64,000 nt of DNA from an uncultured candidate division Zixibacteria bacterium (GCA_963806185.1 CAWDXE010000007.1:640001-704000), one strand, 5' to 3'; shown: positions 12,336-63,451, numbered from the stretch's first letter. The notes: generated by a model not told the origin, from the sequence alone. Program-made: numbers and translations.

Positions 12336-15212
12336 ATGCATTGTACTCGCTTCACATTCGTACTCGGCGTGCTGTTGATACTTGCCTCGTCGAGTTGGGG
12401 GCAGGTCGCGAATCCTGAAAATGGACACCAGTATCTTCTGGTGGGCGGAGGTTATACCTGGTATCAGGCCAATGATTCGGCACAGAAGTTGGGAGGCTAC
12501 CTGGTATCGATTACCAGTGCTTCGGAGCAGTCCTTTGTCGAATCACTCATCTATCCTGAAGGAGTATTCTGGATAGGCGCCACCGACAGTCTGAATGAAG
12601 GCGACTGGGTCTGGACCTCCGGAGAATCGTGGGGGTACACCAACTGGCACAGTGGAGAGCCGAGCAACTCGAGCGGTATCGAGAATTTTGCGACGGTTAT
12701 GACCAGGCTCGGGTACACCGGCCAGTGGAACGACTATGGCGCATTGGGAAGTGCTGCGTTCATAGTTGAGTGGGGATCACCTGTCACTCCGAACGCCGTA
12801 AACATCAACTTCGGTCCTGACGCATTGGGGGATAATGTTTTCACGCAGACCCCTACAATCTTCTGGACATACTACGACGATCCCGCATCTACTCAGGTGG
12901 AATTCGAAATTCAGGTCGGTACCGACCAGGACTGGACGTCAGCGGAGATGTGGACTCCCGGACCGGTTACTTCATCCGACACCAGTGTTGTTTACGCCGG
13001 CGCGACGCTCGAGATGCCCGGCACCTACTATCTCCGCCTGCGCGTGAACAACGGTACGGCCTGGGGCGATTGGCGATACGCCACGATGCACGTAGTCGAG
13101 TCCGCCCGCGTACTCATCGTTCCGGATGATTACGCCACGATTTCGGAGGCGTTCGCCGCTGCCAATGCGTTCGACTCAGTAATGCTCCGGCCGGGCGTCT
13201 ATTCCGGGCCGGGATTCATCGGTCTCAGTCTGCCGAACCGACCGATCACGCTGTATTCGGAGAGCGGTCCGGCCGTCACGGTGCTGGACGCCGCAGGGGA
13301 CCGCAACTACTTCCTCAAGGCTGACAACGGGGCGGATTCCTTGACAGTTATCCGCGGAATCTCGTTTATCAATGCTGATTCCACGGCCGTGATACTCTAC
13401 AACTCGGCCCCGATAATTGCAAATTGCGTGTTTAATGGAAACCAGACCGACGGCAAGGGCACAGCTATATCGTTGTATTATTCTAATCTCCCGATTATTC
13501 GTAATTGTACGTTTGAGAGCAATATCTCGTCTTGGTGTGGTGGGGCCCTGTCGTTTGACCGCTCTGAAACGCCGAAGGTTCAGGATTGTCGCTTTGTCGC
13601 CAACCAGGCGCCCTACGGCGGCGCAGCAATCTCGGTATACAGCGATGTGACCTTCACGCGCTGCCTCTTCCAGTACAATTCCGCATCAGGTGATGGTGCT
13701 GCATCATACAACCAGAACTCAGGCATTCATCGGTTTGACAACTGCACGTTTTATGCGAATGGTGGCACGAGTGCCAGCAGTTCGGTCATCAGGGCGCTGG
13801 AGAACGTGTACATAAGCAACTCGATCATTACTGCGACTACGCTGGGTCGTGCGATAAACGCGTCCGGCGGACCGGTGAGTCTGTCGTGCACGGATATCTA
13901 TGGCAACGCCAACGGCGACTGGACGTCGGATATTGAGGCACAACAGCATATTGACGGCAATTTCTCGCTTGATCCGCTTATTTGCGATCAATCGCTGGCC
14001 TCGATTCCGGAGACTTCACCGTGTGCCCCCGCCAACAACTCCTGCGGAGTGTTAATCGGTGCAGGTACGGTGGGCTGCCCGAGTGTCTTGGTAAATGCGG
14101 TTTCCATTGACGGTGTGGCGATGAATTCACATGTCATTACCGAATCTCCGCTATTTGAGTGGTCGTCCTCGGCCGCGGCGCAGACGGAATTCGAAATCGC
14201 CATCGGGACCGACAACAGCTGGGGTATCGCCGAAATGTGGGCGCCGCCGGTGTTCGTGTCGGCCAGCCAATCAGTGACGTATGCCGGACTGTCGCTCAGC
14301 GACGGGACCAAGTACTATGGCCGGCTCAGAGTCTCGGATGGCACGGAGTGGTCTGCGTGGTATAGTTTCAACTTCCGCACCAATGCTGCACCGAGCACGC
14401 CGGTTCGGGTGAGCCCCGGACTCGGTGTGTGGACCACGCTTACGCCTGTCCTGACGGTCAGTGGAGTCGTTGACGACTCCGGAGAAACAATCTCCTATGA
14501 TTTCCAGGTGTTTACTGATTCACTCTCCTCATCTCCGGCAGCTCAGGTTTCCGGACTTCCCGGTGGTACCGGCACTTTCTGGACAGTCTCACCCGGCCTT
14601 TCTGACAACACGGCCTATTACTGGCGGGCCCGCGCGTACGACGGCTTTGAATACTCGCCTTGGGGTGCGTTTGCCTGGTTCGGTACCAATACGGCGCCTG
14701 AAGCTCCACAGATGTTTGGCCTCATTTCGCCGCCGGTGCAAGCCGGAAAGCCCGTCTACACGCTGTTGCCGGAGTTCGACTGGCAAGCGGCGGTCGATCC
14801 CGACCCGTTCGATTCCGTCAGCTACACGCTCGAATTGGCCACGGATCCAGGCTTCTTGTTCAAGATTCAGGTCGAATCCCTGAAGGCTATCACCTGGACG
14901 ACAGCCGATTCGCTCTCCCCGAATCTTCACTACTGGTGGCGAGTGACGGCACGCGACAAGACGAACCGCCTCGTTGTGGCAACCCCCAGGAACTTCTGGA
15001 CCTGGGCGTCGGGCGACTGCGACGGAAACCAAAACGTCGATATCGGAGATATATCGGCTATGGTCGACGCGCTGTTTATGTCGGCGGTAATGCCGGAACT
15101 GCATCTCATGTACGACGTAAATGGTGATTGCATAGTGGACATAGAAGACCTGACCGTGCTGGTCAGACACCTCTTTATCAGTTTTGAGCCGCTAAAGCCT
15201 GGTTGTCAGTAA
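12336..15212 (+). CDS. Secreted multidomain protein: C-type lectin, FN3-like repeats, right-handed beta-helix, C-terminal dockerin-like domain
   Basis: Signal peptide from ATG 12336; GGYLVSITS..WIGATD..W.W.SGE..NWHSGEPSN..WND lectin motifs; GGA/N..F..N beta-helix repeats; paired GDCDGNQNVDIGD / DVNGDCIVDIEDL loops. Confidence 0.8.
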   Translation: MHCTRFTFVLGVLLILASSSWGQVANPENGHQYLLVGGGYTWYQANDSAQKLGGYLVSITSASEQSFVESLIYPEGVFWIGATDSLNEGDWVWTSGESWGYTNWHSGEPSNSSGIENFATVMTRLGYTGQWNDYGALGSAAFIVEWGSPVTPNAVNINFGPDALGDNVFTQTPTIFWTYYDDPASTQVEFEIQVGTDQDWTSAEMWTPGPVTSSDTSVVYAGATLEMPGTYYLRLRVNNGTAWGDWRYATMHVVESARVLIVPDDYATISEAFAAANAFDSVMLRPGVYSGPGFIGLSLPNRPITLYSESGPAVTVLDAAGDRNYFLKADNGADSLTVIRGISFINADSTAVILYNSAPIIANCVFNGNQTDGKGTAISLYYSNLPIIRNCTFESNISSWCGGALSFDRSETPKVQDCRFVANQAPYGGAAISVYSDVTFTRCLFQYNSASGDGAASYNQNSGIHRFDNCTFYANGGTSASSSVIRALENVYISNSIITATTLGRAINASGGPVSLSCTDIYGNANGDWTSDIEAQQHIDGNFSLDPLICDQSLASIPETSPCAPANNSCGVLIGAGTVGCPSVLVNAVSIDGVAMNSHVITESPLFEWSSSAAAQTEFEIAIGTDNSWGIAEMWAPPVFVSASQSVTYAGLSLSDGTKYYGRLRVSDGTEWSAWYSFNFRTNAAPSTPVRVSPGLGVWTTLTPVLTVSGVVDDSGETISYDFQVFTDSLSSSPAAQVSGLPGGTGTFWTVSPGLSDNTAYYWRARAYDGFEYSPWGAFAWFGTNTAPEAPQMFGLISPPVQAGKPVYTLLPEFDWQAAVDPDPFDSVSYTLELATDPGFLFKIQVESLKAITWTTADSLSPNLHYWWRVTARDKTNRLVVATPRNFWTWASGDCDGNQNVDIGDISAMVDALFMSAVMPELHLMYDVNGDCIVDIEDLTVLVRHLFISFEPLKPGCQ

Positions 15213-17599: not shown

Positions 17600-17886
17600 T
17601 GAACGATTACGCCTCATTTGAAGAGCTTCTCCGTTCAACGGGTGCTCCCTTTACCGGCGATGCGAATGCTCTGGGGACCGTAGCCGTGTTATTGACGGAG
17701 ACTCTGCGTCATCGCGATCGGTTGCGTCAGGAAAAGGGGTATGTCCTGACGGTCGAGGATACCCGTGTCGCCCTCGACACCGTGGCGAACCATCTGAGCG
17801 GAAGTTGCAAGGCCGGACAGCCGCTTACGCCGGAACAGGCGATGCTCGTCCATATCTATCTCCAGAGACTCACGTCGATTGTCTGA
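17599..17886 (+). CDS. Hypothetical 95 aa protein
   Basis: Start overlaps the ruvB stop (TGATG) and the ORF fills the gap to queA; no motif recognised. Confidence 0.6.
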   Translation: MNDYASFEELLRSTGAPFTGDANALGTVAVLLTETLRHRDRLRQEKGYVLTVEDTRVALDTVANHLSGSCKAGQPLTPEQAMLVHIYLQRLTSIV

Positions 17887-17900
17887 CACGTTATTTTGCC

Positions 17901-18948
17901 GTGAAACTCGAAGACTTCGATTATCATCTCCCACCGGAGCTCATTGCTCAGTATCCGCCTGAACATCGGGGCGCATCTCGATTGCTGGTTTATGATCGTC
18001 GCAGTGGGCAGACGACTCACACCGCGTTTCCGAAGATTACCGAGTATCTGAAGAAGGGGGACGCCCTGGTGGTCAATAACACCAAGGTATTTAAGGCCCG
18101 GCTCTGGGGGCACCGTGCCACCGGCGGTCGAGTGGAGGTGTTTCTGGTCAGGAAACTGCCCGCTGAGACCGGGCGAGGCGAGCAATGGGAAGCGCTGGTG
18201 TCACCCTCGCGGCGAGTGAAGGAGGGGGAGAGAATTCACTTCGATGATCGCCAATACGTCATTTTGGATCAATTTCTGCATGAGGGTTCGTGGCTTGTCC
18301 GCTTTGAATCTCGTTCGCAACGAGTGAAGGCGGTGCGTGAATTTGGCCATATGCCGTTGCCGCCTTACATCCGTCGCGAAGATGCCCCGACCGATCTGCG
18401 CCGTTATCAGACCGTTTTTGCTGGCCGCACCCATGAGGGGGCGGTGGCAGCACCGACGGCCGGCCTGCATTTCACGCGAGACTCTGCTCGACGAGATTGC
18501 GGCAAAGGGGGTCAGCCTGATTGAACTGACGCTTCATGTCGGGCCGGGCACGTTTAAGCCGATTTCGGTTGAGCATATTGAGGATCACGTTGTGGATCCG
18601 GAGTTTGCCGAGCTTACACCGTTGGCCGCGACGACTCTCAACCGGGTGCGCCGAAGGGGCGGGAGGGTGTTTGCCGTGGGGACAACGTCGGTACGTACGC
18701 TGGAGGGAGCGCCAAATGCAGACGGACAGGTGCAGCCATTTACGGGCATGATTGATCTATATGTTCGGCCCGGCTTCAATTTCCGAGTGGTCGATAATCT
18801 CATTACTAATTTTCATCTGCCCAAGTCGTCACTTCTGGTACTGGTGAGTGCGCTTATCGGTCATGATCGGCTGATGGAGCTTTATCGTGCGGCAATCGAC
18901 GAGCGGTACCGTTTCTACTCATATGGCGACGCGATGCTGATTCTATAA
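17901..18948 (+). CDS. queA: SAM:tRNA ribosyltransferase-isomerase QueA (frameshift near 18478, probably error)
   Basis: FDYHLPPELIAQ, LVVNNTKV, PLPPYI, YQTVFA, AAPTAGLHF, then LHVGPGTF, VGTTSVR, TNFHLPKS, YRFYSYGDAM in the other frame. Confidence 0.93.
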
Positions 18949-23722: not shown

Positions 23723-25121
23723 ATGGCCCTGGTATTTCGAAACAGCCTGACCCGCGTCAAAGAAGAGTTCAAGCCGATACAGCCGGGCAAGGTCGGTATG
23801 TACACGTGCGGACCGACCGTCTACAATTTCGCGCACATCGGCAATTTGCGCACGTTTATGTTCGAAGACCTGCTTCGGCGGTATTTGAAGTATAAGGGTC
23901 TGCAGGTCACGCAGGTGATGAATCTGACCGACATCGATGACAAGATCATCAAGGGGTCGATTGCCTCGGGAACGTCGCTCAAGGAATTCACGGCGCCGTT
24001 TATCAAGGCATTTTTCGAAGACCTCGAACAACTCCGGATCGAGAAGGCGGAGCACTATCCGGCGGCCACCGATCACATACCGGAGATGGTGGCAATTGTA
24101 AAGGATCTGGTGGCGCGAGGTATGGCGTACGAGGTGAACGGCAACTACTACTTCAAGATTGCCGCGTTCAAGGATTACGGCAAGCTGGCCAATCTCGATA
24201 TGGCCGGGCTCAAAGCCGGGAGCGCGCATCGCCTCCGATGAATACGAGAAGGAGTCGGTGTCCGATTTTGCCCTGTGGAAGGCCTGGGATCCAAACGACG
24301 GCAACGTGTTCTGGGAGACGGAAATCGGCAAGGGGCGGCCGGGCTGGCATCTCGAGTGCTCGGCGATGTCGATGAAGTATCTCGGTCGGCATTTCGATAT
24401 TCACACCGGCGGCGTCGACAACATGTTTCCTCATCACGAGAATGAGATTGCCCAATCCGAGGGCGCCACGGGCGAGAAGTTCGTCAACTATTGGCTGCAT
24501 GCCGAGCACCTGATTGTCGAGGGGCGGAAGATGTCCAAGTCGCTCGGCAATTACTTCACCCTGCGCGACATTCTTGCCAAGGGGTACGCCGGCGTGGTGG
24601 TTCGCTATTTGCTACTTTCCACGCATTACCGTCAGCAGTTAAACTTCACGTTTGACGGGCTCGACGGTGCCAGAAGCGCGCTCGGGCGGTATAACGACTT
24701 CCTCGGCAATCTCGAGAGTCATCCCGGTGGAACATCAAGCGGCGAGGCGAGCGGGATGATCGACACGGCGCGGACCGGATTCGAGTCATCACTTGACGAC
24801 GATTTGAATATCTCCGGAGCCCTGGGTGTAGTTTTTGAGTTGATTCGAGATATCAATCGTCTCAAGGCGGAGAATAATCTCTCGGTTTTCGAGCGCGACG
24901 CGGTGCTGGCGCTTGTTCGACAGTTTGATCGGGTGCTTGATCTTCAGCAAAAGCAGGAGACTTCGATTGACGCCGAGGTGGAGGCGCTGATTCAGCGCCG
25001 GCAGGACGCGCGCAAGGCGAAGGATTTCAAAATGGCCGATACCATTCGCGATCAGTTGGCCGGAATGGGAATAATCCTGGAGGACACGCCGCAGGGCGTG
25101 AAGTGGAAACGCAAAGTATGA
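23723..25121 (+). CDS. cysS: Cysteine--tRNA ligase (1-nt insertion near 24218, probably error)
   Basis: CGPTVY..HIGN, then DFALWK, GRPGWHLECS, HHENEIAQ, KMSKS in the next frame; the break lies in GCCGGGA. Confidence 0.95.
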
Positions 25122-26366: not shown

Positions 26367-26370
26367 TGAT

Positions 26371-39795: not shown

Positions 39796-41109
39796 ATGAA
39801 TACTGCGACCATTCTGGAACCTGTCGTTACCCGGGATTTGTCCCGTTCCGACCAGCCGGCCAAGGCTCTCGTCATCGGCCGGATGGGCCTGGTTCGCGGA
39901 CTCGGAAGGCAGGGAATTCATGTTGCCCTGGCCCGGGAAAACCCGGCCGAAGTTGAGCGGTATTCCCGCTATTGCCGGGAGTTCATTCGCCTTCCCAGCA
40001 TGCTTCACGATCGCGAACGGGCGGTTGAGACGCTATGCGCCTTTGGCCGTCGGCAATCCCGCAAGCCGGTCGTGTTTCTGAGCGGAGAATCCGACGTGCT
40101 CCTCTTTTCACACTTTCGGGACACTCTGTCGAACTACTTTGAAATTGTACTCGCGGACCGAGCCTTGCTCGATGCCTTGGTGGACAAGGGGAAATTTGCC
40201 GTACTGGCCGAGCGCTTTGATTTGCCGGTGCCGCGCACCAAGGTCGTCAACAGGGCTGATGAGGCATTCGCTGCCGCCGACCAGTTCGGCTTTCCGTGTA
40301 TTCTCAAACCGATTCGCCAGTCGGACTGGTATCGTCGAGAAATTCGAAATGCTCTTGGCCTCCGCAAGGCGGTACTGATTCAGAGCCAGGTGTCACTCCG
40401 GGCGCTCTATCGCGCTATGCCCGACCCCGGGCAGGTCATGATTCAGCAGTACATTGCCGGTCCGGACACCCAGCACTTCGACTTCCACGGATATTCCGAC
40501 CGAACCGGAACCGTGCGCGGCAGTATCGTGGGCCACAAACTTCGCACCTGGCCCATTCATTTCGGACAGGGTACCTACACGCACTACGTCGACGAACCCG
40601 TTATCACGGAATTGTGTTGCGACGTCTTGTCGCGCATCGGTTACATCGGTGCGTCCAACATCAATCTGAAGCGGGATGCGCTTACCGGTCGGGATTACAT
40701 CCTCGAAATCAACCCGCGGTTCTCATTCTGGGCGATCTTCGATCAAGCGTGCGGCGTCGACCTCATGCGTATGCAGTACAACGAAGCCGTTGGTCTGCCG
40801 GTCGATATCACGATTCCCTTGAAGTCCCCGCGAAGCTGGCTCTGGTTCGAAGGTGACTGGAAAGCTTTTCACGCCTACCGTGAGGCCGGCGAACTGAATT
40901 GGCGCCAGTACCTGCAGAGCTTCCGGCTGGTCAAGGAGACGATCGTTTTCCACACCTGGTCATGGAAAGATCCATTGCCTTCTGCGGTCCTGTTGGCCAG
41001 GCATGTCGGCGTTTTGCCGAAGCGGATAGCCTCAGCCTGCTATCGATGGATAAGGCGACGCCTGCATTTGGATTCGATCCTGGTGGTAAGACCGGGTCGA
41101 CCGACCTAG
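39796..41109 (+). CDS. ATP-grasp carboxylate-amine ligase (D-aspartate-ligase-like)
   Basis: LVDKGKF, FPCILKP, IQQYIAG, LKRDA, LEINPRF. Confidence 0.8.
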   Translation: MNTATILEPVVTRDLSRSDQPAKALVIGRMGLVRGLGRQGIHVALARENPAEVERYSRYCREFIRLPSMLHDRERAVETLCAFGRRQSRKPVVFLSGESDVLLFSHFRDTLSNYFEIVLADRALLDALVDKGKFAVLAERFDLPVPRTKVVNRADEAFAAADQFGFPCILKPIRQSDWYRREIRNALGLRKAVLIQSQVSLRALYRAMPDPGQVMIQQYIAGPDTQHFDFHGYSDRTGTVRGSIVGHKLRTWPIHFGQGTYTHYVDEPVITELCCDVLSRIGYIGASNINLKRDALTGRDYILEINPRFSFWAIFDQACGVDLMRMQYNEAVGLPVDITIPLKSPRSWLWFEGDWKAFHAYREAGELNWRQYLQSFRLVKETIVFHTWSWKDPLPSAVLLARHVGVLPKRIASACYRWIRRRLHLDSILVVRPGRPT

Positions 41110-41876
41110 AGGCAACTCGGCAAGGAATCGATTCCCCCAACAAACAGAAACTGCACCATGGCGGTCAGGTCGGAGATATCGATGACGCCGTCTCCGACTG
41201 CGGGAGACACATCGCTTTCTTCCGGACAGCGGAGCCGCAGGTCGAAATTCAGAAAGAGAAAACCGATCATTACGGTCAAGTCGGAGATATCTATGCCATC
41301 GTCCGGCGACCCGTCAACGTTTCCACGCCCACCCACACAACAGCTATCCTGGAGATCAACGTAGCCGGCTTCAAATTGGGGAACGAATGTCTGGAGTTCG
41401 AAATCCGAGAACCAGGTACTGTGTTCCACGACGTCGACCAGCAGGGTTGTACTGTCGATTCGAATGAGGCCGGTTGTGGCGGTATCCGCCATTGTGACAT
41501 ACATAGTCCCAAACAGACCTCGTCCCGGATAGATGAAAAAGTCCGAGTATGGAAACGCATATGTGGTGATCACACTGTCATAAGTCACCGCTCCCTTGAG
41601 CTGCAGATAATTGACGATACTACCGGTAAACGAGAAGGAGTCCAGGCTCAACGATGGACTTTGCAGTTTGAGAGTGATCTCGATGCCCGAAAGCGGCTGG
41701 TCCGTCACGATACGTATCGGGATTGCCACGTGCGAACCTCTGAGTGCGCGCACTGAATCGACTCGAACAGTATCGGGAAGGTTGGGGTCAGAGATATAGG
41801 TCCGGGCCCGGGTGACTCCGGTGATAACCAGTGTCGCCACTAGGACCTTCAAAAGAATATGTAGACTATGGTTCAC
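41106..41876 (-). CDS. Secreted cohesin-like plus dockerin-like protein
   Basis: Signal peptide; beta-rich DTVRVDSV..GSHVAIPI..LSGIEITL..LDSFSF segment resembling a cohesin; C-terminal CCVGGRGNVDGSPDDGIDISDLT..DGVIDISDLT. Confidence 0.7.
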   Translation of the reverse strand: MNHSLHILLKVLVATLVITGVTRARTYISDPNLPDTVRVDSVRALRGSHVAIPIRIVTDQPLSGIEITLKLQSPSLSLDSFSFTGSIVNYLQLKGAVTYDSVITTYAFPYSDFFIYPGRGLFGTMYVTMADTATTGLIRIDSTTLLVDVVEHSTWFSDFELQTFVPQFEAGYVDLQDSCCVGGRGNVDGSPDDGIDISDLTVMIGFLFLNFDLRLRCPEESDVSPAVGDGVIDISDLTAMVQFLFVGGIDSLPSCL

Positions 41877-45296: not shown

Positions 45297-45298
45297 CG

Positions 45299-47689: not shown

Positions 47690-47744
47690 GGGATGCCGAT
47701 TTTCCTAATTTGACCACAAAGAAGGTCTTGACAATCGATCAAGT

Positions 47745-50148: not shown

Positions 50149-50877
50149 ATGATTGAGGCCCGTGGGCTGAGCAAGTTCTACGGACCATTTGTCGCCATCA
50201 AAGACATTTCGTTCGCCATCCCCAAGGGTCAGATTGTCGCCTTTCTCGGTCCAAACGGGGCGGGCAAGACCACCACGATGAAGATCCTGACCGGGTATTT
50301 GTCCCCAGCGAAGGATCGGCCGCCATCGCCGGCCTGGATATCCGCACCCAACGACTGGAGGCAGCCAGGCGTCTGGGCTATCTTCCGGAAAACGGTCCAC
50401 TCTATGACGAGATGACCCCGCTGGAATTGCTCCGGTTCTTCGGCGAAGTTCGCTGCCTCTCCGGCTCGCACCTCCAGGGGAGAATCGACACTGTCATTCA
50501 CCAGTGTGCCCTTCAGCAGGTAGTCGAAAAACCGATCGGCAAGCTGTCGCGCGGGTACCGGCAACGCGTTGGTCTGGCTCAGGCGCTGCTTCACGATCCG
50601 GAGGTGCTCATCATGGATGAACCAACAGCCGGTCTGGACCCCAATCAAATCCGTGAGTTCCGTGCCAACATCGTCGAATTGGGGAAACTGAAGACAATTC
50701 TGCTTGTCGACTCACATTCTCCAGGAAGTGACGGCGGTGGCTGATCGGGTGATATTGGTCAATGAAGGGCGATTGGTGTTTGACGGCACGCCGACCGACC
50801 TTACCCAAGACGGGTCGATCGAGGCGACCTTCTACCGTCTCACCGGAAGCGCCGGGGCGGTCGGGGAGGCAGTATGA
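50149..50877 (+). CDS. ABC transporter ATPase (GldA-like), two frameshifts near 50305 and 50703
   Basis: [46 protein letters not shown] spread over successive frames. Confidence 0.88.
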
Positions 50878-53552
50878 TCCCCAAGATCAACTGGCGTGTA
50901 GTGAGCGTCATCGGCAGGCGCGATCTGAAGCTCTATTTCTCCAGCCCGACCGGCTACGTCTTTCTCACTCTCTTCATTTTCCTGAGTGCTGCGGCTGCCT
51001 TCTGGCAGCAGCGATTCTTTGCCGATAATCTGGCGAATCTCGATACGCTGAATTCAGTGTTTCCGTTCATCCTTCTCTTCTTCGTTCCGGCGTTGACCAT
51101 GAGCATTTGGGCGGATGAGCGACGACGCGGCACCGAGGAGCTGCTGCTCACACTGCCGGCGACAGATGTCGAAGTAGTCATGGGCAAGTATTTTGCGGCG
51201 GTCGGCATATTTACCGTTTCATTGATAGTCTCGCTCAGCCACGTCGCTGTGTTGCTCTGGCTGGGCCGACCGGATATGGGCCTGATGTTCGGCAACTATG
51301 TCGGCTTCTGGTTGCTTGGCGCGGCGATGGTAGCGATCGGCATGGTGGCTTCCTTGCTCACGGCTCATGCGACCATCGGCTTCATTCTGGGCGCCCTGTT
51401 CTGCTCGTTTTTCGTCTTTGTCACGTCGACCCAGTTCGTGGTGAGCGAATGGCTGCAGAGGATACTGGCGCCGCTCGGCGTCTTCGAACATTTCAGCGAA
51501 TACTCTCGTGGACTCATGACGCTGGGTGGTCTGGTCTATTTCCTTTCGGTGATCGGGTTCATGCTCTATCTCAACGTCTTACTCCTCGGTCGAAGGCATT
51601 GGCCGGCGCAGGTCGAAGGGCAGCGCTTTGGATTGCACCAGGCGGCTCGGGCAGTAGCGGTTGCCGTCGCCCTGGTGAGCCTGAACGTCATCGTTGCCCG
51701 GGCCGGCATAGACCTGGATGTGACGGCGGAGGGGCTGCATTCGATTTCACCGGAAACAAAAGAGCTGATTCGCTCATTACCCAAGGATAAGCAGGTCTTT
51801 ATCCAGGCGTACGTGAGCCCCGAAGTACCGCGCGACTATGTTGAAACGCGCAATAATCTGATCAACAGTCTCAACGAAATCGCATCGCTTGCCCCCGACC
51901 GCGTGCAAGTGCTGATTCACGATACCGAGCCGTTCACCGACGCTGCCAAGGATGCGCGAGATAAATTCGGGATTGTCTCACGTGACATTGTCAGCATGGA
52001 GTCGGCGCGCACCTCAACTGTCCCGGTTTTCATGGGACTTGCGTTTACCTGTGGTGCCTCGGAAGAAGTCATTCCCTTCTTCGATCGAGGTCTGCCGGCC
52101 GAATATGAGTTGGTGCGGAGTATTCGCGTTGTGACAAAGGCCGAACGAAAGAATATCGGCGTCGTCACAACGGCTGCGAAAGTATTCGGCGGGTTTGATT
52201 TTGAATCCATGCAATCGACACCGCCATGGGGCATTGTCCAGGAGCTGCAAAAGCAGTACAATGTGACCCAGATTGACGCCGCTCAGCCGATCTCCGAGAC
52301 ACTCGACGGCCTGCTGGTCATTCTCCCGTCGTCGCTTCCGCAGAATGCACTCGACAATTTGCGAGACTACGTAATGGCGGGACATCCAACATTGATTATT
52401 GATGATCCTCTGCCGCTGATCAATCCGGCGCTGTCACCGGTGCTGCCCTCCGACGCCCAGTCGAACCCGTTCACGCGCAATCAGTCACAGCAACCGGAAC
52501 CGAAGGGCAATGTGCAGGCATTGATATCCCAGTTGGGTATTCACTGGGACCCGCAACAGATTATTTGGGATACCTATAATCCGCATCCTGAGCTGGGTCA
52601 GGTGCCACCGGAGATTCTATTTCTTGGCAAGGGAGACGTGGCCACCCCGGGATTCAATCCGGATCACCCGGCCAGTTCCGGCCTGCAAGAGGTTGTGGCC
52701 CTCTATTCCGGCTGCCTCATCAAGGCGCAGGATTCGCCTTACGAGTTCACGCCGTTGCTGCGGACCGGCCATCTTTCCGGCGCACTGGCCTGGCAGCAGT
52801 TGGTGCAACGCAGTTTCTTCGGCATGGGCCTGAACCGCAATCCCCGTCGCCAACCCACTGGCGAATCGTATATTGTAGCGGCGGAAGTCAAAGGCACCGG
52901 CCCGCTGCCTACCGGCGCCACCGGCGAGGTGAAACAGCCTAAGGTGAATGCGATCGTTATCACCGATCTCGATCTGATCTCCGAGCAGTTCTTCCAGTTC
53001 CGTGAACGAGGTCTGGCCAACTACAATTTCGACAATGTCACTTTCGTTCTGAACTGTATGGACCATCTGGTGGGTGACGAATCGTTTGTGGGTTTGCGCA
53101 AGAAACGGATTCGCCATCGTACGCTCGAGTCCGTTGAGGCACAGACCCAGCAGTTTGTCGAGAAACGACTTGAAGATGAAAAGAAGGCGGAGGAAGAGGC
53201 TCAGACGGCGCTTTCCGACGCTCAAAAACGATTGAATGACAAGGTCAGCGAGATCTCGAATCGCACCGATCTGGACATGCAGACAAAACAGATTATGGCT
53301 CAGAACATGCAGGAGGTCGAGAACCGACGGTTTGAGGTAACAAAAGCCAACATCGAATCGCGCAAACAGGCCACCGTTCAGCGAAGTAAAGAGGAGATGG
53401 AGTCGAACGTCCGCCGGATACAGAGCCGCATACGGGCGTTGGCCGTACTGCTGCCGCCGATTCCGGTGTTGGTGGTCGGTGTCTTTGTCTTTCTGCGGCG
53501 ACGCAAACGCGAACGAGAAGGGGCAGCCGCTGCCCGTCGGATGAGGAGCTAG
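50874..53552 (+). CDS. ABC permease fused to a GldG-like auxiliary domain (GldF-GldG fusion)
   Basis: YFSSPTGYVF, PALTMSIWADERRRGT.ELLLTLP, DLDVTA..LHSIS..T..L, EYELVRSI, N..FVLN..DHL.GDE. Confidence 0.85.
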   Translation: MIPKINWRVVSVIGRRDLKLYFSSPTGYVFLTLFIFLSAAAAFWQQRFFADNLANLDTLNSVFPFILLFFVPALTMSIWADERRRGTEELLLTLPATDVEVVMGKYFAAVGIFTVSLIVSLSHVAVLLWLGRPDMGLMFGNYVGFWLLGAAMVAIGMVASLLTAHATIGFILGALFCSFFVFVTSTQFVVSEWLQRILAPLGVFEHFSEYSRGLMTLGGLVYFLSVIGFMLYLNVLLLGRRHWPAQVEGQRFGLHQAARAVAVAVALVSLNVIVARAGIDLDVTAEGLHSISPETKELIRSLPKDKQVFIQAYVSPEVPRDYVETRNNLINSLNEIASLAPDRVQVLIHDTEPFTDAAKDARDKFGIVSRDIVSMESARTSTVPVFMGLAFTCGASEEVIPFFDRGLPAEYELVRSIRVVTKAERKNIGVVTTAAKVFGGFDFESMQSTPPWGIVQELQKQYNVTQIDAAQPISETLDGLLVILPSSLPQNALDNLRDYVMAGHPTLIIDDPLPLINPALSPVLPSDAQSNPFTRNQSQQPEPKGNVQALISQLGIHWDPQQIIWDTYNPHPELGQVPPEILFLGKGDVATPGFNPDHPASSGLQEVVALYSGCLIKAQDSPYEFTPLLRTGHLSGALAWQQLVQRSFFGMGLNRNPRRQPTGESYIVAAEVKGTGPLPTGATGEVKQPKVNAIVITDLDLISEQFFQFRERGLANYNFDNVTFVLNCMDHLVGDESFVGLRKKRIRHRTLESVEAQTQQFVEKRLEDEKKAEEEAQTALSDAQKRLNDKVSEISNRTDLDMQTKQIMAQNMQEVENRRFEVTKANIESRKQATVQRSKEEMESNVRRIQSRIRALAVLLPPIPVLVVGVFVFLRRRKREREGAAAARRMRS

Positions 53553-53555
53553 GGT

Positions 53556-54908
53556 ATGAACGAATCAAAAAAGACACTATCGTTTGTGGGCGTGGCCTTG
53601 GCTCTGGCGGTTGTCGCATGGCTGGTTTCGCCCAAACCATACACCCCGAAGGCTTTTGCCGATCAGGGTCAGGACTTCTTTCCAAACTTCACGGATCCGA
53701 ACGTCGCCACCACCCTTGAGGTAGTGGACATTGATGAAACCACCGGCCTCGCACGACCGTTCAAGGTCACTTTTCGCAACGGCCGATGGACCATTCCTTC
53801 TCACCACGACTATCCCGCCGATGCCAAGGATCGGCTAGCCAAGACCGCCGCGGGGGTCATTGATATCAAGAAGGATGATTTCCGAACCGACAATTCAGCC
53901 GAATTTGAACGCCTTGGCGTTATCGATCCTACCGACGCCGGTATTTCCGGCTCCACCGGTCGAGGTAAGCGCGTGACATTGAAAGATGCCAACGAGTCTG
54001 TTCTGGCGGATTTCATCGTCGGGAAAGACGTCGAAGGACGGAGCGGCTTCAAATTCGTCCGGGTCCCGGGTGAAAAGCGGGTTTATGCCGTCCGAATGAA
54101 TGTTGATCTGTCGACGAACTTCGAGGATTGGATCGATCGCGACCTCCTGCAGATCAATGCCTCCGACCTGGCTGTTGTCGACGTGCGGGATTACTCTATC
54201 AACGAGCGCACCGGATCGGTCGATCAGCGAGAAAACTGGACGCTGGCGAAAGTCAATGAACAGTGGCAATTCGGACGGGGAAGTAAAGGCGGAAAACCCG
54301 ATTCGACCAAGATGGCGGATCTGGTCAAGGCGCTCGACTCGCTCACTATCGTAGGCGTACGTCCAAAACCGGCCGGTCTCTCGGCCGCGCTTAGGGCCGC
54401 ACCGGGTTCCGGTCTGACCACCGCCGATATGATGGATTTGCAGAACAAGGGATTCTATTTGACTCGCGACGGCCAGCTTCTTTCGAACGAGGGAGAGATG
54501 CAGGTAGCCACCCGCGATGGGGTCGTGTTCACCCTTCGTTTCGGCGAGGTCCTGTACGGCTCCGGACTATCGGTGACCGCCGGTGCGCCCGAAACGACGG
54601 GCGAGAAAGGTCCGGCGGAGAACCGGTACCTGTTTGTGAGTGCGTCCTTTGACCCATCGACAGTGTCCAAGCCAAAGGAGCCGGCCAATACCGATTTCAG
54701 ATCCAAACCAGACTCGACCTGGAACGCCTCCGACCGCGCGAACAAGGCCCTCCAGGATGAACTTGATCGCTGGAAGTCCAAGGTTGATTCCGGTCGCCAA
54801 CGGGCAGAGGAATTGAATGCTCGATTCGCCAACTGGTATTATGTCATTTCTGAGCAGACATTCACTCGTCTGGATGTCAAACGGACTTCGCTGACGTCGC
54901 GAAGCTGA
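53556..54908 (+). CDS. DUF4340-like anchored protein of the Gld-like ABC system
   Basis: N-terminal TM helix, W.I.....YPAD, FVRVPGE..VYAV, DWIDRDLL; usual position after gldG-like genes. Confidence 0.75.
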   Translation: MNESKKTLSFVGVALALAVVAWLVSPKPYTPKAFADQGQDFFPNFTDPNVATTLEVVDIDETTGLARPFKVTFRNGRWTIPSHHDYPADAKDRLAKTAAGVIDIKKDDFRTDNSAEFERLGVIDPTDAGISGSTGRGKRVTLKDANESVLADFIVGKDVEGRSGFKFVRVPGEKRVYAVRMNVDLSTNFEDWIDRDLLQINASDLAVVDVRDYSINERTGSVDQRENWTLAKVNEQWQFGRGSKGGKPDSTKMADLVKALDSLTIVGVRPKPAGLSAALRAAPGSGLTTADMMDLQNKGFYLTRDGQLLSNEGEMQVATRDGVVFTLRFGEVLYGSGLSVTAGAPETTGEKGPAENRYLFVSASFDPSTVSKPKEPANTDFRSKPDSTWNASDRANKALQDELDRWKSKVDSGRQRAEELNARFANWYYVISEQTFTRLDVKRTSLTSRS

Positions 54909-56660: not shown

Positions 56661-59052
56661 TTACGGGCAGGTCGGCGTTGGACCCATGGTAATAAACAAC
56701 TGATCGACTAAAGCTGACAAATCAGCGATATCGACCGTCGTCTCAGCCGACATATCCATGTTGGCGGCATCGGCGCAACACAGAGAATTGCCGTCGATAA
56801 AGAGGTAGAGCACCAGCGCGGTCAGATCGCCGATGTCGCAGTTGTTGGTCGGATCGCAGTCGATATTACCGCGCTTACCGTTGCAGCAGGTAGGATTCGC
56901 GGGTGTAATCGGCCATACCTCGGATAGGGGAGACGAAAGCGGGAGGAATTTCTCTCCTCCCGGTCCCCAGTCAAATGAGTTCACGCCGACCCGATACGCC
57001 TGGTCGGTGAGCAGACCGTCGATCCGAAGTTCGTAATCGTAGTATTTGAATTGTCCCTGATCATTGAGATACAGGTCAACCTCGTCCGGCGGCACGTCAG
57101 TCGGTCGAGTGTAGGGTGGCTTTGGCGCGTCGGGGAATTGCTTCACGATCTTCGTCTCAAGCCCCAACTTGGATGCATTGCAGCCGACCGGCACGAAATA
57201 GAACACCGAATCAATGTCTGACATCCAGAAAAGAGGGCTGGCCTTCGTATAGTCGGTCGGAGACCAGGTTGAGTCGTTTATTCCCCCCGGCGCGTACTTC
57301 TCGCGAAGTTGTTCGATCGTGAACGGAATCGACTCAAACCGCCAATCCATGACCACTTGATCATACCGTACCCGGGTGTAGTCTTCCCGGTCATACGAAC
57401 TGACCAGCGCATATGGCTCGGGCGAATCGTGCTTCTTCAGAAAGACGTTGTACCCCTCAAAGTCAGATCTGCCCAGAAACGGATCGCGCGTTGTCTCAGT
57501 CCGCCACCCGTTCCAGTGCATAACGATGCTCCCCTGGTCACCGTGCGCCGTCAGCGGCGGCGCTACAGGAATGCCGGCCGCCTTCAGATCCGGCACGTCG
57601 TCGCCCGCGTACCAGAAGGTGTCGCCTTCACAAACACTAAACTTGCCGGCGTACCCGTCACCGTCGGTATCGAAGCCGGGGTTGTCGTATATCCACTTTG
57701 CCCATTGGGCGTTGGTCAACAGATCGCTGAAATCGAGATTGGCATAATAGGCCGACGGATTGTAGATGCCGGTTTCCAGATAGGTCACATTGTCCGGATT
57801 GGTGTGGAGATTCATGCCCACCCACATATGCGATCGCAAACGAGACGCTCTGGCCAGAATCCAGATCGAACGGGCCGAAGGAGAGCAGGTAGCGAGTATC
57901 GTACCCGTTGGCGAGGTCAACTGCGACAGTCTGCGGCGGATACATCCAAAGCGTGTCTGCGGCAGAGATGGCGGCAGTGTAGACCTGGTCGTAATCGAAT
58001 TCATGGTTGCGCAGGAACCAGTACTTGTTGCGGTCGCCCACGGGCGTGCCTTGCCCGCCGGTGCCCAAGTCGCGGTATGTTTGGCGTCCCTGCGGTCCGA
58101 AATCTCGCCTATAATCACTGTTGCTGATCCACCAATTGAATGCGGACAGTGTAGCTCCGGTGGAACCCAGGATTTCAGTGGCGGTCACGTTTTGCACATA
58201 GAGTCCCGAAGGGTCGGTCAGGTCGCCGTCGTTATCGGCGATCCAGGCGAGCTGCAGAGTATCGCCGGGTGGGCAAGACCCGCCATTGGTTTGAGGAGCA
58301 GGGGTGGAAAGAAAGCCACAAATGTCGTCCTGGGCACCTTCCGATGTCGCTCTCGGGTATACATCGCCGTCGACATACACCCCAACATAAGCCTCGCGCA
58401 ACGGGTCGCCCGTGATCTTGGTCATACGGTATTCGATAATCACGAAATCATCGGCATAAGGATACGACCAGGCATACGAAGTCTGGTCAACGCGCAGGCC
58501 GAGTGGAATGTGCGGGCGGTGATCTATGGCATCGCTGCTCGAACCGGGGCAATTTCGGCACGTATCATAATACGTACCCAACAGATCTTGATGGGAAACA
58601 GCATCAAGGTATTCGGGGCTGTTGGGATCCAATGTCGATCTTCGCAGAAGCGACTCGTTGACGTCGGGAACGAACTCCTGACCTCCTGTCCAGCCATCAG
58701 CCGCTTGGGACACAAGCGTATCTTGTCCTACGACTGCGCCTACCCATAGCGCACCCAAGAACAGGTAGCGTGATCCCGAGCCAATCGGATATTCGCATGA
58801 TCGTAAGGTCGCACCCGTGAAGCAATCAGTTGAAGATGACGACATGCCGTCCCCAAAAGTGCCATTGTTCGATATCACGAGTGAAATGACACCCACATTA
58901 TGACCCGCCACACCACAGCCGGTCGGGGCGCTCACGTTGCCTGATGAAAGTCGCTGTGGATCAATGCGATTGCGACCTGTGGCAGTTGTTGTTCCCATTA
59001 GGAGAACGAATATGGAAACACTCGACAGTAGTCGTACCAGTTCATTTCTCAT
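56661..59052 (-). CDS. Secreted protein A1 (about 796 aa) with C-terminal dockerin-like domain; 1-nt frameshift near 57817
   Basis: ORFs 57658..59052 and 56661..58118 join at YVGG/MNLH and align end to end with the intact paralog 61052..63451; CCNGKRGNIDCD..DIGDLT..VDIADLS. Confidence 0.85.
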
Positions 59053-60976
59053 CCTGTCCTCCTGCTTCTCTCTTGGCTGTCACTTCAGTCGCATCGTTGA
59101 AAAGCCCCTCCGTCCGGCCGATCGGGATTGTGCTCATCATCGGCTTCTCTCCCGGCGTCGGGTCGTAGAGCCAGTTCAGAACACTGTCGACGACTGTCTG
59201 CAGCACGCCTCCGCTATCGCTCATGAACACTGGTGAGAAGTTGGTGACGACTGTTCGGAAAATCCCTCGGTCCAGCCGGTATCCGACCACACCTCCCTGA
59301 CACGCGGGAGTGTATTGTGTGTACGGATAATTCTCACCATACTTGGATTCATAGGTATACAAGATTTCCGCTTCCGGCACAGGGACTATGACGTTCACCT
59401 CCGGAGGGCAAGCAATGGACGGTATCCAGTCATAGTTCCAGACATATCTCGAGTGCAGATACCCGGTGTCCACCACCAGGTCGGGCCACCCAGTTGCGAA
59501 GGCCGCCTTGGCCCCAATAAAATCCTCCACACGCACCGGCGGATCGACATGAAACCCGTTGGCCAGCCACTCCCAGCCGCTGTAGGAGTATGAGGTCATG
59601 CCGAAATAGTATTGCCAGGGCCAACCCAATGGTCCGGAGAGTTGCGTCGGCTTGTCTTCTCCACCCCACGCTGGATCTCGCCCGCAGAGCCAGACGGCAA
59701 CACCAGCATCCTGTACGGCCATGATCTTCGATCTAACAGACGAGGCTTGAAGGATTCCTGGGATCACATCGTCGCCGTACAAGATGATGATTTTGTGTTC
59801 GAGGAGGAGCTTAAGGGGTAGGACGAGTCCGGTCGGCGTTTCCGGCATGTACCATTGAAACGACTTGTCGGGCGACCAGGCAGAAACCGCTTGTTGCCAA
59901 TACGATTGCGCTTGGTTCCGCTTGACCGGGTTGATTGTGTATGCAGTGTTCGAGTAGACAACCAAGATATCATTTTCGAACTTGGGATTCAACACCTCAA
60001 ACGATCGACTCGGCGGGGCAGAGTCGACGACCGTCGTGTCATCGGCGTCGCGCGCCCGCACCCATAGATAGAATGTCCCCAGCGTAGTCTGGTGAATCAC
60101 TTCATTGGCGAAGAGGTTGAAGGCCGTGTCAGACGTATCGGCTACCCAGGGATTATCGAGCGTACCGCTCTGTCGGGCAATCTTGTTTAACTCCGGATTC
60201 AGTGCAAACACCGGATCATCGACCAGTATGGTGGTGTCGAAATGCCCCAGCGGTCCTTCGGAGGTGATTTGGTCAATCCACGTAGTCTCGCACTCCACCG
60301 TCATGCCATCCGGCATAGGGAAAGTGTCACACGTAATCATCTTCTCACCCAGACCGCGCCGGTATACATGTCCGTCATTGGTGACAAAGACCTCTTTCAC
60401 GAATTCGGTCCGCATGATCCTCGCCCAGGCCGTGTCGTATGGTCCGTAGATGCGCCATTCGTAGGAGAGCTTCACCTTGGTCAGAGGGTGATCGAGATTG
60501 TCGTTGGCTCGCCATTGGAGCGGAATCAGCAGTTTTGAATTGGCAGATGAAGTGACTGTGTTGATGAAGGGCTCGACGGTCGCCGAGAGCGGCTTGACAA
60601 TCTTCGTCTGCGGCGGATGATTGAGCGGTCTGGGGCAGGCCGGCAGAGGAGTGAAGGTGAGGAAGAGGTGATCGATCAGCATGGTGAGATCACCGATATC
60701 TATGTTACCGGCCGGATCCTGCTCCATGTTGGCCTGTTCTTTCGATGGCAACGGCATGAAATCGATAAACAGGTGGTTGACCAGTACTTGCAGGTCGGCG
60801 ATATCGACCTCGTTATCGTAGCTGCAGTCGACATTACCGACATGCCCGCTGCAGCAACAACCATTGGGCGACTGCGCGCAATTCACGTCGGCCCGGACAG
60901 GCGCACCAACAAACAAAAACGCACCGAAGACAGCCGCATAACAGGCCGCTCTGGCGCGATTTAAAGTAAACGACAT
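59042..60976 (-). CDS. Secreted protein B1 with N-terminal dockerin-like domain
   Basis: Signal peptide, then CCCSGHVGNVDCSYDNEVDIADL..ANMEQD..IDIGDLT; PPQTKI beta region; C-terminal alpha/beta domain; stop overlaps the A1 start. Confidence 0.8.
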   Translation of the reverse strand: MSFTLNRARAACYAAVFGAFLFVGAPVRADVNCAQSPNGCCCSGHVGNVDCSYDNEVDIADLQVLVNHLFIDFMPLPSKEQANMEQDPAGNIDIGDLTMLIDHLFLTFTPLPACPRPLNHPPQTKIVKPLSATVEPFINTVTSSANSKLLIPLQWRANDNLDHPLTKVKLSYEWRIYGPYDTAWARIMRTEFVKEVFVTNDGHVYRRGLGEKMITCDTFPMPDGMTVECETTWIDQITSEGPLGHFDTTILVDDPVFALNPELNKIARQSGTLDNPWVADTSDTAFNLFANEVIHQTTLGTFYLWVRARDADDTTVVDSAPPSRSFEVLNPKFENDILVVYSNTAYTINPVKRNQAQSYWQQAVSAWSPDKSFQWYMPETPTGLVLPLKLLLEHKIIILYGDDVIPGILQASSVRSKIMAVQDAGVAVWLCGRDPAWGGEDKPTQLSGPLGWPWQYYFGMTSYSYSGWEWLANGFHVDPPVRVEDFIGAKAAFATGWPDLVVDTGYLHSRYVWNYDWIPSIACPPEVNVIVPVPEAEILYTYESKYGENYPYTQYTPACQGGVVGYRLDRGIFRTVVTNFSPVFMSDSGGVLQTVVDSVLNWLYDPTPGEKPMMSTIPIGRTEGLFNDATEVTAKREAGGQDEK

Positions 60977-61051
60977 ATTCCCTCCCAGAGAGTATGGTAC
61001 CTAAAACAATAGCATTACATCCATGTTATGTCAAGCTCTTTCGCCCTCGAC

Positions 61052-63451
61052 TCACTCAGCTTTGGCTTCCTCGGTCGATCCACAGTTACGCAATTGGGTA
61101 TAGGAGATGAACAGCGATTCCACCAGCGCCGACAGGTCGGCAATGTCCACCGCGCCATCCGTAGAACCGTCAACGTTCGCCGCCTCCGAACAGCAAAGGG
61201 CACCGTTGGAGAGGAAAAGGTGATCTATCAGCGCCGTGAGATCACCGATGTCACACGTTGCGCCGGCGTCACAATCGACATTCCCCACTCGCCCGATACA
61301 GCACTCGCCGAGCTCCGGCACGACAACCTGCACCGATATTCGCGCCGACTCAAGCATTGACAATGCACCCATAGGCGACCCACGATCGAAAGCCGCGACC
61401 GCCAGGTCATAAGCTATTCCTGGAGCAACATCATGAATCACCAGTTCGTAATCGTAGAACTTGAAATCCCCTTCTGGGTCAAGGTAACGGTCGGTGGAGT
61501 CTGCCGGCACGTCGTCGGTTCGACGGTACGGCGGGCGAGGGGCGTCAGGATATCGTTTCGTAATTGGTGTCTCTTTCCCGAACCTGGAAACGTTACACCC
61601 AACCGGCAGGAAATACATAAACGAATCGGCCGTGGCCATCGGACTGATCCGGGTATACGCCAGCGGAAACCAGATTGAATCAGTTTCGCCGTCAGGGGCA
61701 TAGCGCGCCCTAAGTTGCTCCGCGCTATAAACCCGCCGGTCGCACTCCCACGTGCGTTGTCCCTGTTCCCAATAATAGCGGAAGTAGTCTTCGGCGTCCC
61801 ATTGCGCTACCTTCACCAGACTATCCGCCGAGCTATCGAATCGCAGATAGACGTTGTACCCCTCAAAATCGGCTGCTCCGGACACCCGGTCTATCGACAT
61901 CTCACTCTCCGTGCCATTCCATTGCACGATCAAATCCGTTCCGGAAGAAAACGCAGCGACTGACGGCGCGGATGGAGGGACGTCGGCAACCAGATCCGGC
62001 ACGCCGTCACCCTCGTACCAGGCCGTGTCGCCATCGCATACTCGAAACTTGCCCGCGTACCCGTCGCCGTCGGTATCAAAGCCCGGGTTGTCGTACACCC
62101 ATCTGCTCATCCGCGCGTTGCGGGCGAGATCATCGAAATTGAGATTACTTGTGTACGTCCACGGGTCGAGAGGAAGATTCTCAAGGTTTGTCGGATCGAC
62201 ATGGAAATTGCGCCCGCCGACGTAGGCGAACACGAATCGCATCGAATCGCCGGGGAGCAGGTCGAAAGGTCCGCACGAGATCAAGTAGCGCGCATCGTAA
62301 CCGTTGGCATAATCGAGTATTGGCACCCTGTCGCGGGGATAGGCCCAGATCGAATCGAAGGGATCGACCGAAGCCACATACGCCATGTCGTAGTCAAACT
62401 CCCGATGGCGCATCACATAATACTTGTTCACGTCCCGAACCGGTGTTCCTTCGCCGCCCGTACCGAAATCGCGGTACGGATCAACGGGCCGGCCGATCAT
62501 CCTTGGACCAAAGTCGCGGTTTGGATCGCCGTTGCTGATCCACCAGTTGAATGATGAAACCGGCCCCGACTGTGACACGTCAATAGGCACGGCCGCCGTC
62601 ACATTTGGGACGGGCAACGGACTGAGCGGGGGCCGATTGTACAAGTCGCCGTCATTGTCGGCCAACCAGGCAACTGGAATTGTGTCGACGCCGCAACCGT
62701 TCGGGTCGGGATGAAACTGTGAAAACCCGGTCAAGTCATCGGAATACCCTTCCTGGGTACCGATGCCATACACGTCGTTGTCAAAATACAGCCCGAGATA
62801 TCCTTGCGAGATCGGTTGTGTGCCTATGTGGAAGAAATCGAGCACCACGATGACAAAATCACTGGCATGCAAATATGACCAATTGTACGACGATTGCCGA
62901 ACGACCAGCCCAAGCGGGATGTGATACCTATTCTCATCTCGAGGAATGGATCTACAGTCGGTGCACGTATCGGCGTACCAGGCAACATAGTCCTGGTGTG
63001 AAACGGCATTCTGCCGGTTAAGCGGATTCGTGCTTGTTGTCGAATGGTACGCAATCGGTGGAACGTTCCCAACCGGCCGGAATTCATTGCCGCCGGCCCA
63101 TCCCTCTACAGATGTGGATATAAGCGTATCTACACCGACTACCCCTCCGATCCAGATGCCGCCCCAGAAGGTATACTGAGTGCGACTGCCAATGGGATAG
63201 TGGCAACCATCCAGGTACTGCCCGGTGAATATGTCCTGTACAGCCGTATAATTACCGGCGGCGAGAACTCCGTCATTGCTAATGCCGAAGCTGAATGCCC
63301 CGACATTGTGTTCGGCGACTGCCGGCGTAATGGCAGTAGGCGCAATGCCCGATAGATCGAATCCCGCTTCCGACCTGGCCACAGCGATTTCAGATTGCGA
63401 TAAGAATGCCAGCACGACTGCCAGGAAGAAGATCCGCGCTTGACTACTCAT
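61052..63451 (-). CDS. Secreted protein A2 (799 aa) with C-terminal dockerin-like domain
   Basis: Signal peptide; HNVG..ISN.G, YPIGS..Y.F.G..W.G.VVG.DTL, DNDGD, DNPGFDTDGDGYAGKF, DFEGYNV; CCIGRVGNVDCD..DIGDLT..VDIADLS. Confidence 0.88.
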   Translation of the reverse strand: MSSQARIFFLAVVLAFLSQSEIAVARSEAGFDLSGIAPTAITPAVAEHNVGAFSFGISNDGVLAAGNYTAVQDIFTGQYLDGCHYPIGSRTQYTFWGGIWIGGVVGVDTLISTSVEGWAGGNEFRPVGNVPPIAYHSTTSTNPLNRQNAVSHQDYVAWYADTCTDCRSIPRDENRYHIPLGLVVRQSSYNWSYLHASDFVIVVLDFFHIGTQPISQGYLGLYFDNDVYGIGTQEGYSDDLTGFSQFHPDPNGCGVDTIPVAWLADNDGDLYNRPPLSPLPVPNVTAAVPIDVSQSGPVSSFNWWISNGDPNRDFGPRMIGRPVDPYRDFGTGGEGTPVRDVNKYYVMRHREFDYDMAYVASVDPFDSIWAYPRDRVPILDYANGYDARYLISCGPFDLLPGDSMRFVFAYVGGRNFHVDPTNLENLPLDPWTYTSNLNFDDLARNARMSRWVYDNPGFDTDGDGYAGKFRVCDGDTAWYEGDGVPDLVADVPPSAPSVAAFSSGTDLIVQWNGTESEMSIDRVSGAADFEGYNVYLRFDSSADSLVKVAQWDAEDYFRYYWEQGQRTWECDRRVYSAEQLRARYAPDGETDSIWFPLAYTRISPMATADSFMYFLPVGCNVSRFGKETPITKRYPDAPRPPYRRTDDVPADSTDRYLDPEGDFKFYDYELVIHDVAPGIAYDLAVAAFDRGSPMGALSMLESARISVQVVVPELGECCIGRVGNVDCDAGATCDIGDLTALIDHLFLSNGALCCSEAANVDGSTDGAVDIADLSALVESLFISYTQLRNCGSTEEAKAE

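Follow-up and report, generated by a model that had tools for sequence, protein, structure and literature searches.

Cohesin–dockerin docking without cellulases: a proposed protein-display system in an uncultured Zixibacteria genome

Dockerin carriers of the window

We describe a set of dockerin-bearing secreted proteins encoded in a stretch of 64,000 nucleotides (the window; GCA_963806185.1, CAWDXE010000007.1:640001-704000) from the genome of an uncultured candidate division Zixibacteria bacterium, the assembly of which comprises 3.65 Mb in 8 contigs and is 82% complete. An initial annotation placed dockerins, paired loop–helix repeats that bind cohesins, in five proteins of the window, named here by the first nucleotide of each gene, and all five modules are present. 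The 12336 protein (12336..15212, plus strand; 958 residues) is assigned by Pfam scan a C-type lectin, Rha78A-like immunoglobulin-like (Ig) domains, a beta-helix and a C-terminal dockerin low in cysteine (14994..15209), which has the variant motif GDCDG/DVNGD. Its Ig part or its whole body is common to four paralogue-like dockerin carriers. The remaining four proteins, all on the minus strand, share the form CCxGxxGN(V/I)D. The 41876 protein (41106..41876; 256 residues), which is conserved family-wide and is likely to be an adaptor, combines a cohesin-fold domain (41349..41789) with a dockerin (41109..41342; CCVGGRGNVD). The 63451 protein (61052..63451; 799 residues) is made up of a predicted beta-supersandwich and another all-beta domain, with a dockerin at its C-terminus (61079-61303; CCIGRVGNVD), and sequence comparison identifies a paralogue of it in a frame-broken gene (56661..59052) that also ends in a dockerin (56664-56888; CCNGKRGNID). 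As annotated, the module is C-terminal in four of the proteins and N-terminal in one, the 60976 protein (59042..60976; 644 residues; dockerin 60632-60856, CCSGHVGNVD), the body of which belongs to a lipoprotein family without assigned function. The signal peptides of the carriers were judged by eye only.

A sixth carrier, a 621-residue paralogue of the 60976 protein, crosses the right edge of the window, so that its C-terminal end (63444..64000, minus strand) lies inside and its N-terminal dockerin just beyond. The cluster at 56661-64000 consists of a tandemly duplicated gene pair, one member encoding an N-terminal-dockerin protein and the other a C-terminal-dockerin protein. Homologues of both partners occur on contigs of the same length in three other data sets, which suggests that the pair travels together.

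The 59052 gene requires a qualification. Its dockerin exists, but the open reading frame (ORF) that begins at 59052 terminates at 57658 without it; the module is read in a second frame (56661-58184), with the change at a run of G residues (57817-57819). Three other genes of the window are split across frames: thrS (3147-5097), queA (17805-18948) and apparently cysS (23723-25121). Since thrS and queA are split alike, the frameshift in the 59052 gene is likely to be an assembly error. Many genes elsewhere in the genome are also frame-split, and indel errors are likely in the assembly. The single public DNA read run (0.05 word share) gave no coverage of the break at 57817-57819, and no RNA run was listed.

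Standard family models recover little of this. The 12336 dockerin barely exceeds the Pfam Dockerin_1 cut-off (PF00404; 23.1 versus 22.9 bits, with 77 bits from our custom profile) and is the sole pass among the five proteins; the Pfam scan gave no match whatever in the other four, including no cohesin in the 41876 protein. The window proteins have no NCBIfam match, and an Atlas search with the bodies of the 63451 and 60976 proteins gave unnamed clusters only. The assignments of the cohesin and of the cysteine-rich dockerins in the window are based on predicted structure and custom profiles. In an AlphaFold2 model of the adaptor, calculated from 7 sequences with a predicted local distance difference test (pLDDT) value of 68.6, both of the annotated folds are recognizable. 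Residues 32-179 align with cohesin 6kgc_A (VIA Z 16.2, root-mean-square deviation (rmsd) 2.7, 136 residues); cohesin entries fill the 20 best VIA rows, and the best other fold, a pilin Ig domain, has Z 10.7. The top Foldseek matches of this domain are likewise all cohesins (E 4e-9, to 4ums). A PDB sequence search with the adaptor-cohesin alignment retrieved no cohesin. Residues 183-254 align with dockerin 4fl4_A (Z 10.0, rmsd 1.8, 65 residues) and 2ccl_B (Z 8.9). The AlphaFold model of the 63451 protein also shows the two dockerin helices.

The dockerin module and its genome-wide carriers

A genome-wide profile scan and count of carriers, as the initial annotation had envisaged, reveals a large family. 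With our iterated genome profile, 92 ORFs out of the 29,684 read in six frames prove to carry a total of 100 dockerin domains. The genome also has some 22 cohesin-like domains. A chance origin of the dockerin matches is excluded because reversed ORFs searched with the same profile give none. The module occupies the extreme C-terminus of 86 carriers, is N-terminal in five (one a fragment) and internal in one. About 1.6 carriers are expected per 64 kb from the genome density. The Pfam dockerin model gives 28 matches in the genome, 20 above its cut-off, and the cysteine-rich majority falls below; because most modules escape Pfam in this way, Zixibacteria secretomes are under-annotated.

From the modelled fold and the profile, the module is best described as a divergent, cysteine-rich, type I-like dockerin. 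When a profile of 47 modules was compared with the PDB, each of the top eight sequence matches was a chain with a dockerin (best E 3e-4). For 82 of the 100 domains both repeats were parsed; here Asp stands at loop positions 9 and 12 in 98-100%, and the identity between the two repeats of a module is 75%. Loop positions 1 and 3 are Asp or Asn in 91 domains. At least two cysteines are found in 92 of 95 full domains, with up to ten per dockerin. Calcium binding and disulfide formation are predicted from knowledge of the family and from the conserved Asp and Cys residues. Hydrophobic residues are unusually prominent on the exposed face of the helices (IGDLTxLIxxLF). Dual-mode dockerins have symmetric repeat faces. 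Among the adaptors of relatives (20 parsed of 22), identity between the helix faces of the two repeats is 0.75 in the same protein and 0.49 across proteins, a symmetry that was reached in none of 10,000 permutations. The helix face therefore appears to drift between lineages yet to stay symmetric, as a two-fold face tracking a lineage-specific partner would. The main profile misses a second dockerin subtype (GDINLNG...EIADxxxF), which was noticed inside seven ORFs (in the region L033:16468-18024, G000:C6:191450-193006; in L040, C7:366320-375763; and in five more); six have an in-frame C-terminal domain (CTD) of the kind associated with the type IX secretion system (T9SS), and in at least two the dockerin directly follows a cohesin-like domain.

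The cargo of the 87 carriers outside the window was tallied by hand from a Pfam scan (E 1e-5). Peptidases form the largest recognizable class genome-wide, with 15 carriers (seven S8, two M6 and one each of M12B, M28, M43, C10, M64 and M1). Other cargo comprises propeller proteins (five FG-GAP, three SBBP), two further lectins, and Ig and cadherin stalks, the cadherin-like ones reaching 3037 residues; 43 of the 87 have no cargo family by Pfam. One carrier (L048:17958-19481, minus strand; G000:C7:792679-794205) is a five-haem cytochrome with five CxxCH motifs, a Cytochrome_C7 match and a dockerin tail; a second (G000:C4:489626-490753) has one CxxCH. No glycoside hydrolase family was matched by Pfam among these 87 carriers or the five of the window, in agreement with the annotated absence of such cargo, and a use other than cellulose is likewise supported. 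Dockerin and CTD are nearly exclusive, Pfam Por_Secre_tail matching just one of the 87.

Our main new point is that the dockerin takes the place of other anchors in two cargo families. Sequence is shared between 32 of the 92 carriers and CTD-tailed non-carriers, in many cases through single domains and in some along the full body. For example, a CTD-tailed paralogue in the same genome matches the 63451 protein with 36% identity over 722 residues. Of 839 homologues of the 63451 body, the best 120 divide into 34 with a dockerin at the end, 73 with a variant CTD-like tail, 11 with a canonical CTD and two with neither. A FastTree phylogeny of these tails, calculated without bootstrap and with the window protein on a long branch, implies at least four changes, two of which are forced by well-supported branches. 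In the 60976 family (25 members) eight proteins start with a dockerin and 17 with a lipoprotein-type start (11 by pattern, six by eye); two of the eight dockerin-first members also fit the lipoprotein pattern, and the family tree has two changes, one of them forced. In both families the module sits at the end where the parent protein carried its attachment. Because it is exchanged with a CTD C-terminally and with a lipoprotein start N-terminally, these comparisons point to tethering as its job.

Some further features of these families were noted. At least 12 paralogous ORFs of the 63451 beta-supersandwich family occur in the genome, most with the variant CTD-like tail; numerous Asp, Gly and Pro residues are invariant in the family, which lacks a catalytic barrel. 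The model of the 63451 protein (pLDDT 89, 93 sequences) resembles the N-terminal beta-supersandwich of GH15, GH116 and GH94 enzymes and aldose epimerases (Z at most 19.2, TM ~0.2), a comparison that mostly covers residues up to about 490. Assignment of the protein as a glycoside hydrolase was rejected, since the model is near all-beta and has no helical catalytic barrel. The lipoprotein parent of the 60976 family in the genome directly follows a gene that, by eye, resembles a TonB receptor. Named homologues of the 63451 and 60976 proteins are mostly from Zixibacteria.

The modules are widespread among relatives. In a sample of 120, all of one class, the dockerin profile matches 115 genomes, 90 of them at least 45 times, and the cohesin profile matches 117. 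The three cohesin-less genomes have 0, 0 and 2 marginal Pfam dockerins and keep SprA, which is kept in all ten genomes checked. Two genomes missed by the dockerin profile have 10 and 11 Pfam dockerins, with cohesins present. The adaptor cohesin matches 58 of 60 genomes of the family. Of 33 adaptor-related loci that were read, 27 encode short cohesin-dockerin proteins (24 distinct besides that of the window), four encode cohesin-cohesin-CTD proteins and two are cut off. A search with the adaptor protein gave three related loci, each from Ca. Zixiibacteriota (39-40% identity).

Sockets, anchors and the proposed docking

Pfam Cohesin gives six matches in the genome, three above the cut-off. A profile seeded with the adaptor cohesin recovers all six and identifies 22 domains in 19 ORFs; a more sensitive run identifies 24 in 21, two of them weak. 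Of these 21 ORFs, eight carry a dockerin, seven end in a T9SS CTD without that dockerin and six have neither in frame; by eye, four of the six resemble fragments of genes broken by frameshifts, next to an ORF with a CTD or a dockerin. TIGR04183 scored above its cut-off in all three of the cohesin-CTD anchors tested. Two cohesin-CTD proteins are short (279 and 327 residues), with no further domain visible, and one stand-alone secreted cohesin has no CTD (G000:C1:385498). The adaptor cohesin is 40% identical to the first cohesin of a T9SS-tailed two-cohesin protein encoded elsewhere in the genome. The two-cohesin CTD gene (L045:1-1426; G000:C7:619805-621230) lies within a flagellar region; it is split here and intact, at 468-476 residues, in relatives.

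The genome has 58 ORFs with a CTD match, three C25 peptidases, one of which is PorU-like and adjoins one or more PorV-like genes, and SprA, which is present in all 31 genomes searched, relatives included. GldL was found in none of the 31, in a search without positive control. The T9SS motor may be divergent or different in these genomes.

We consider it probable that about 90 secreted proteins plug their dockerins onto a few cohesins that are fixed at the surface by T9SS tails, with adaptors between. The carriers would be exported by Sec, fold and oxidize in the periplasm, and dock in a calcium-dependent manner on cohesins that T9SS processing keeps at the cell surface. Cohesin-dockerin proteins such as that at 41106-41876 would serve as adaptors or spacers. 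In Bacteroidota the T9SS anchors CTD proteins covalently at the surface, and by analogy the cohesin-CTD proteins may be anchored covalently too. The displayed kit would consist of peptidases, propeller and lectin adhesins and some cytochromes, and would be used to attach to and digest proteinaceous matter and not cellulose.

Several observations weigh against such surface docking. The cohesins number about 22 sockets for about 100 plugs, no ORF contains more than two or three, and no long tandem-cohesin scaffoldin was found in the genome. With a mean column identity of 25% they are also very divergent, and since a single face is common to the majority of plugs, it may go unbound by most cohesins. 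In the eight of 21 cohesin ORFs in which a dockerin adjoins the cohesin, the two could pair internally. The first-loop spacer is canonical in 22 of 91 domains and two residues longer in 63, so the calcium site of loop 1 may differ from the canonical one. Intragenic conversion could yield the same repeat symmetry as a two-fold binding face. The joint absence of cohesins and dockerins is a weak correlation since it comes from three genomes of only two families, and the variant tail of the 63451 family matched the CTD profile in only 37 of 73 cases. GldM_4th has no match in this 82% complete genome. Lastly, no route across the outer membrane is established for folded carriers that lack a CTD. A complex prediction for one pair, the adaptor cohesin with the 63451 dockerin, gave a score of 0.09 and a mark of 0.32, which weighs neither way.

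The imbalance between plugs and sockets bears on a different explanation, in which the dockerin fold binds a partner other than a cohesin (an outer-membrane receptor, itself or a surface polymer) or acts as a stabilizing cap held by calcium and disulfides, the cohesin folds being mostly Ig-like spacers. Plugs exceed sockets by about 4:1, the sockets are divergent, the hydrophobic helix face would permit self-association, and orphan dockerins are common outside cellulosomes. We nevertheless regard this explanation as doubtful, given that the adaptor domain fits cohesins well above pilin Ig folds, that cohesins and dockerins co-occur and go missing jointly, and that beyond cohesin and CTD no domain is visible in the short cohesin-CTD proteins.

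The outer membrane raises two further alternatives. The carriers might travel piggyback via SprA, use a type II-like system or not cross at all. Of two secretin loci inspected by eye, one was taken for a type IV pilus (PilMNOPQ-like) cluster and the other for a type II/MSHA-like one, and neither could be tied to the carriers. By the first route, the dockerin would be a second-tier sorting signal, about 90 CTD-less proteins binding cohesin-CTD carriers in the periplasm and riding with them through the type IX translocon. We think this improbable; if it were true, a whole phylum would have handed over both the export and the anchoring of a large share of its surface proteins, multiheme cytochromes included, to one swappable plug. 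With no crossing, docking would be confined to the periplasm or the inner side of the outer membrane and would organize periplasmic enzymes instead of a surface coat. The carriers do have a signal peptide alone and almost never a CTD, one family has swapped a lipoprotein start for a dockerin (and lipoproteins can face inward), and the stand-alone secreted cohesin lacks a CTD. The T9SS tail that terminates seven cohesin ORFs argues against a periplasmic location, as do the lectins, the cadherin-like stalks of 3037 residues and the extracellular-type proteases among the cargo, and the CTD tails of relatives with the same cargo; we therefore hold it to be unlikely.

The initial annotation had grouped the five window proteins into one modular complex, which as a defined assembly would centre on the 41106-41876 cohesin. 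That protein has both folds and is conserved, and four carriers cluster at 56661-64000. However, a single cohesin takes a single dockerin, the 41106-41876 protein lacks its own anchor, the genes are scattered amid housekeeping operons at distances of up to 50 kb, and the cluster is a product of gene-pair duplication, with 87 more carriers elsewhere. Such a complex is very unlikely; the five are just part of 92 dispersed carriers, the anchors of which are likely to be encoded elsewhere.

The surroundings of the window genes were also noted. A surface polysaccharide cluster (25302-39731), with dTDP-rhamnose genes, glycosyltransferases, a flippase and an O-antigen ligase-like gene, directly precedes the adaptor gene on the opposite strand. 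Cytochrome c maturation genes and a multiheme cytochrome are at 44083-49409. A fused GldF/GldG-like ABC permease and a DUF4340 protein (50874-54908) lie just upstream of the carrier cluster, and another multiheme cytochrome operon (G000:C7:705495-710301) is directly past the right edge of the window.

Comparison with known systems and implications

The clostridial cellulosome pairs (6kgc, 4uyp, 3ul4, 4fl4 and 2ccl; single-cohesin anchors such as OlpA) have the same two folds, a duplicated loop–helix with Asp9 and Asp12, and symmetric repeats. The Zixibacteria proteins differ from these in the cohesin sequence (11-18% identity), in having up to ten cysteines per dockerin and a longer first loop, in the lack of cellulase cargo and in belonging to a diderm cell. 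Clostridial dockerins carry basic residues at position 17, whereas those described here carry a hydrophobic Ile or Val. Searches for GH9 and CBM3, each with a positive control that was recovered, gave no match in this 82% complete genome, and the single GH5 has no dockerin. GH48 was found in none of 31 genomes, in a search without positive control, and no many-cohesin scaffoldin was detected (at most two or three cohesins per ORF, although very divergent ones could escape). As far as its sequences tell, the system resembles the docking layer of a cellulosome but is not itself a cellulosome, since it has no cellulase cargo and no CBM3 scaffoldin.

Comparable non-cellulosomal complexes have already been proposed for uncultured Gram-negative phyla in two papers (PMC8542988, PMC6461901), so that the idea is less new than might be supposed. 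The nearest is the cellulosome-like complex proposed in silico for Ca. Stygibacter of the Cloacimonadota (Williams et al., 2021; PMC8542988). This is also an uncultured Gram-negative member of the FCB group, with signal-peptide enzymes that end in dockerins, among them an S8 peptidase, and a cohesin protein anchored at the surface by a T9SS-type CTD. Its complex is built on one scaffoldin of 3,755 residues with tandem cohesins and CBM2/CBM3, has few enzymes, including GH18 and GH57, and is reported there for one genus. Here, in contrast, there are about 90 carriers without glycoside hydrolase cargo, no CBM3, short anchors with one or two cohesins, cysteine-rich dockerins, a near phylum-wide presence and repeated exchange of the dockerin with a CTD or lipid anchor.

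The second is the planctosome, a hypothesis put forward for freshwater Nemodlikiaceae of the Planctomycetota (Andrei et al., 2019; PMC6461901). It too is outlined as a non-cellulosomal kit for polypeptide degradation, with an anchor, a cohesin-dockerin adaptor and M12B peptidase cargo; its anchor is proposed to act through a lamin-tail domain and not a T9SS tail, its components are few and its phylum is different. A recent report proposes the Gram-negative cohesin-dockerin pair Cag_2037/Cag_2038 of Chlorobium chlorochromatii as a tether that keeps a secreted protein at the surface (10.64898/2026.03.19.712371); this is a single gene pair with a type II cohesin and type I secretion, and not a genome-wide tag. 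A preprint on giant genes, in its available part, concerns Omnitrophota and leaves Zixibacteria unmentioned (10.1101/2023.11.21.568195). Our search, with subscription literature outside its scope, found no publication on dockerins in Zixibacteria or Zixiibacteriota. Some such proteins are already labelled 'dockerin type I repeat-containing protein' by NCBI.

Lineage-specific cysteine-rich pairs could serve as orthogonal parts in designer enzyme scaffolds. For the organisms themselves, the swaps with T9SS tails and lipoprotein starts indicate that the purpose of the tag is attachment, and they pose the question of how tail-less folded proteins reach an anchored socket across the outer membrane. 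If the proposed docking is correct, the cohesin–dockerin interaction would be a general means of surface display in a widespread uncultured Gram-negative phylum, on a scale near that of elaborate cellulosomes and without cellulases.

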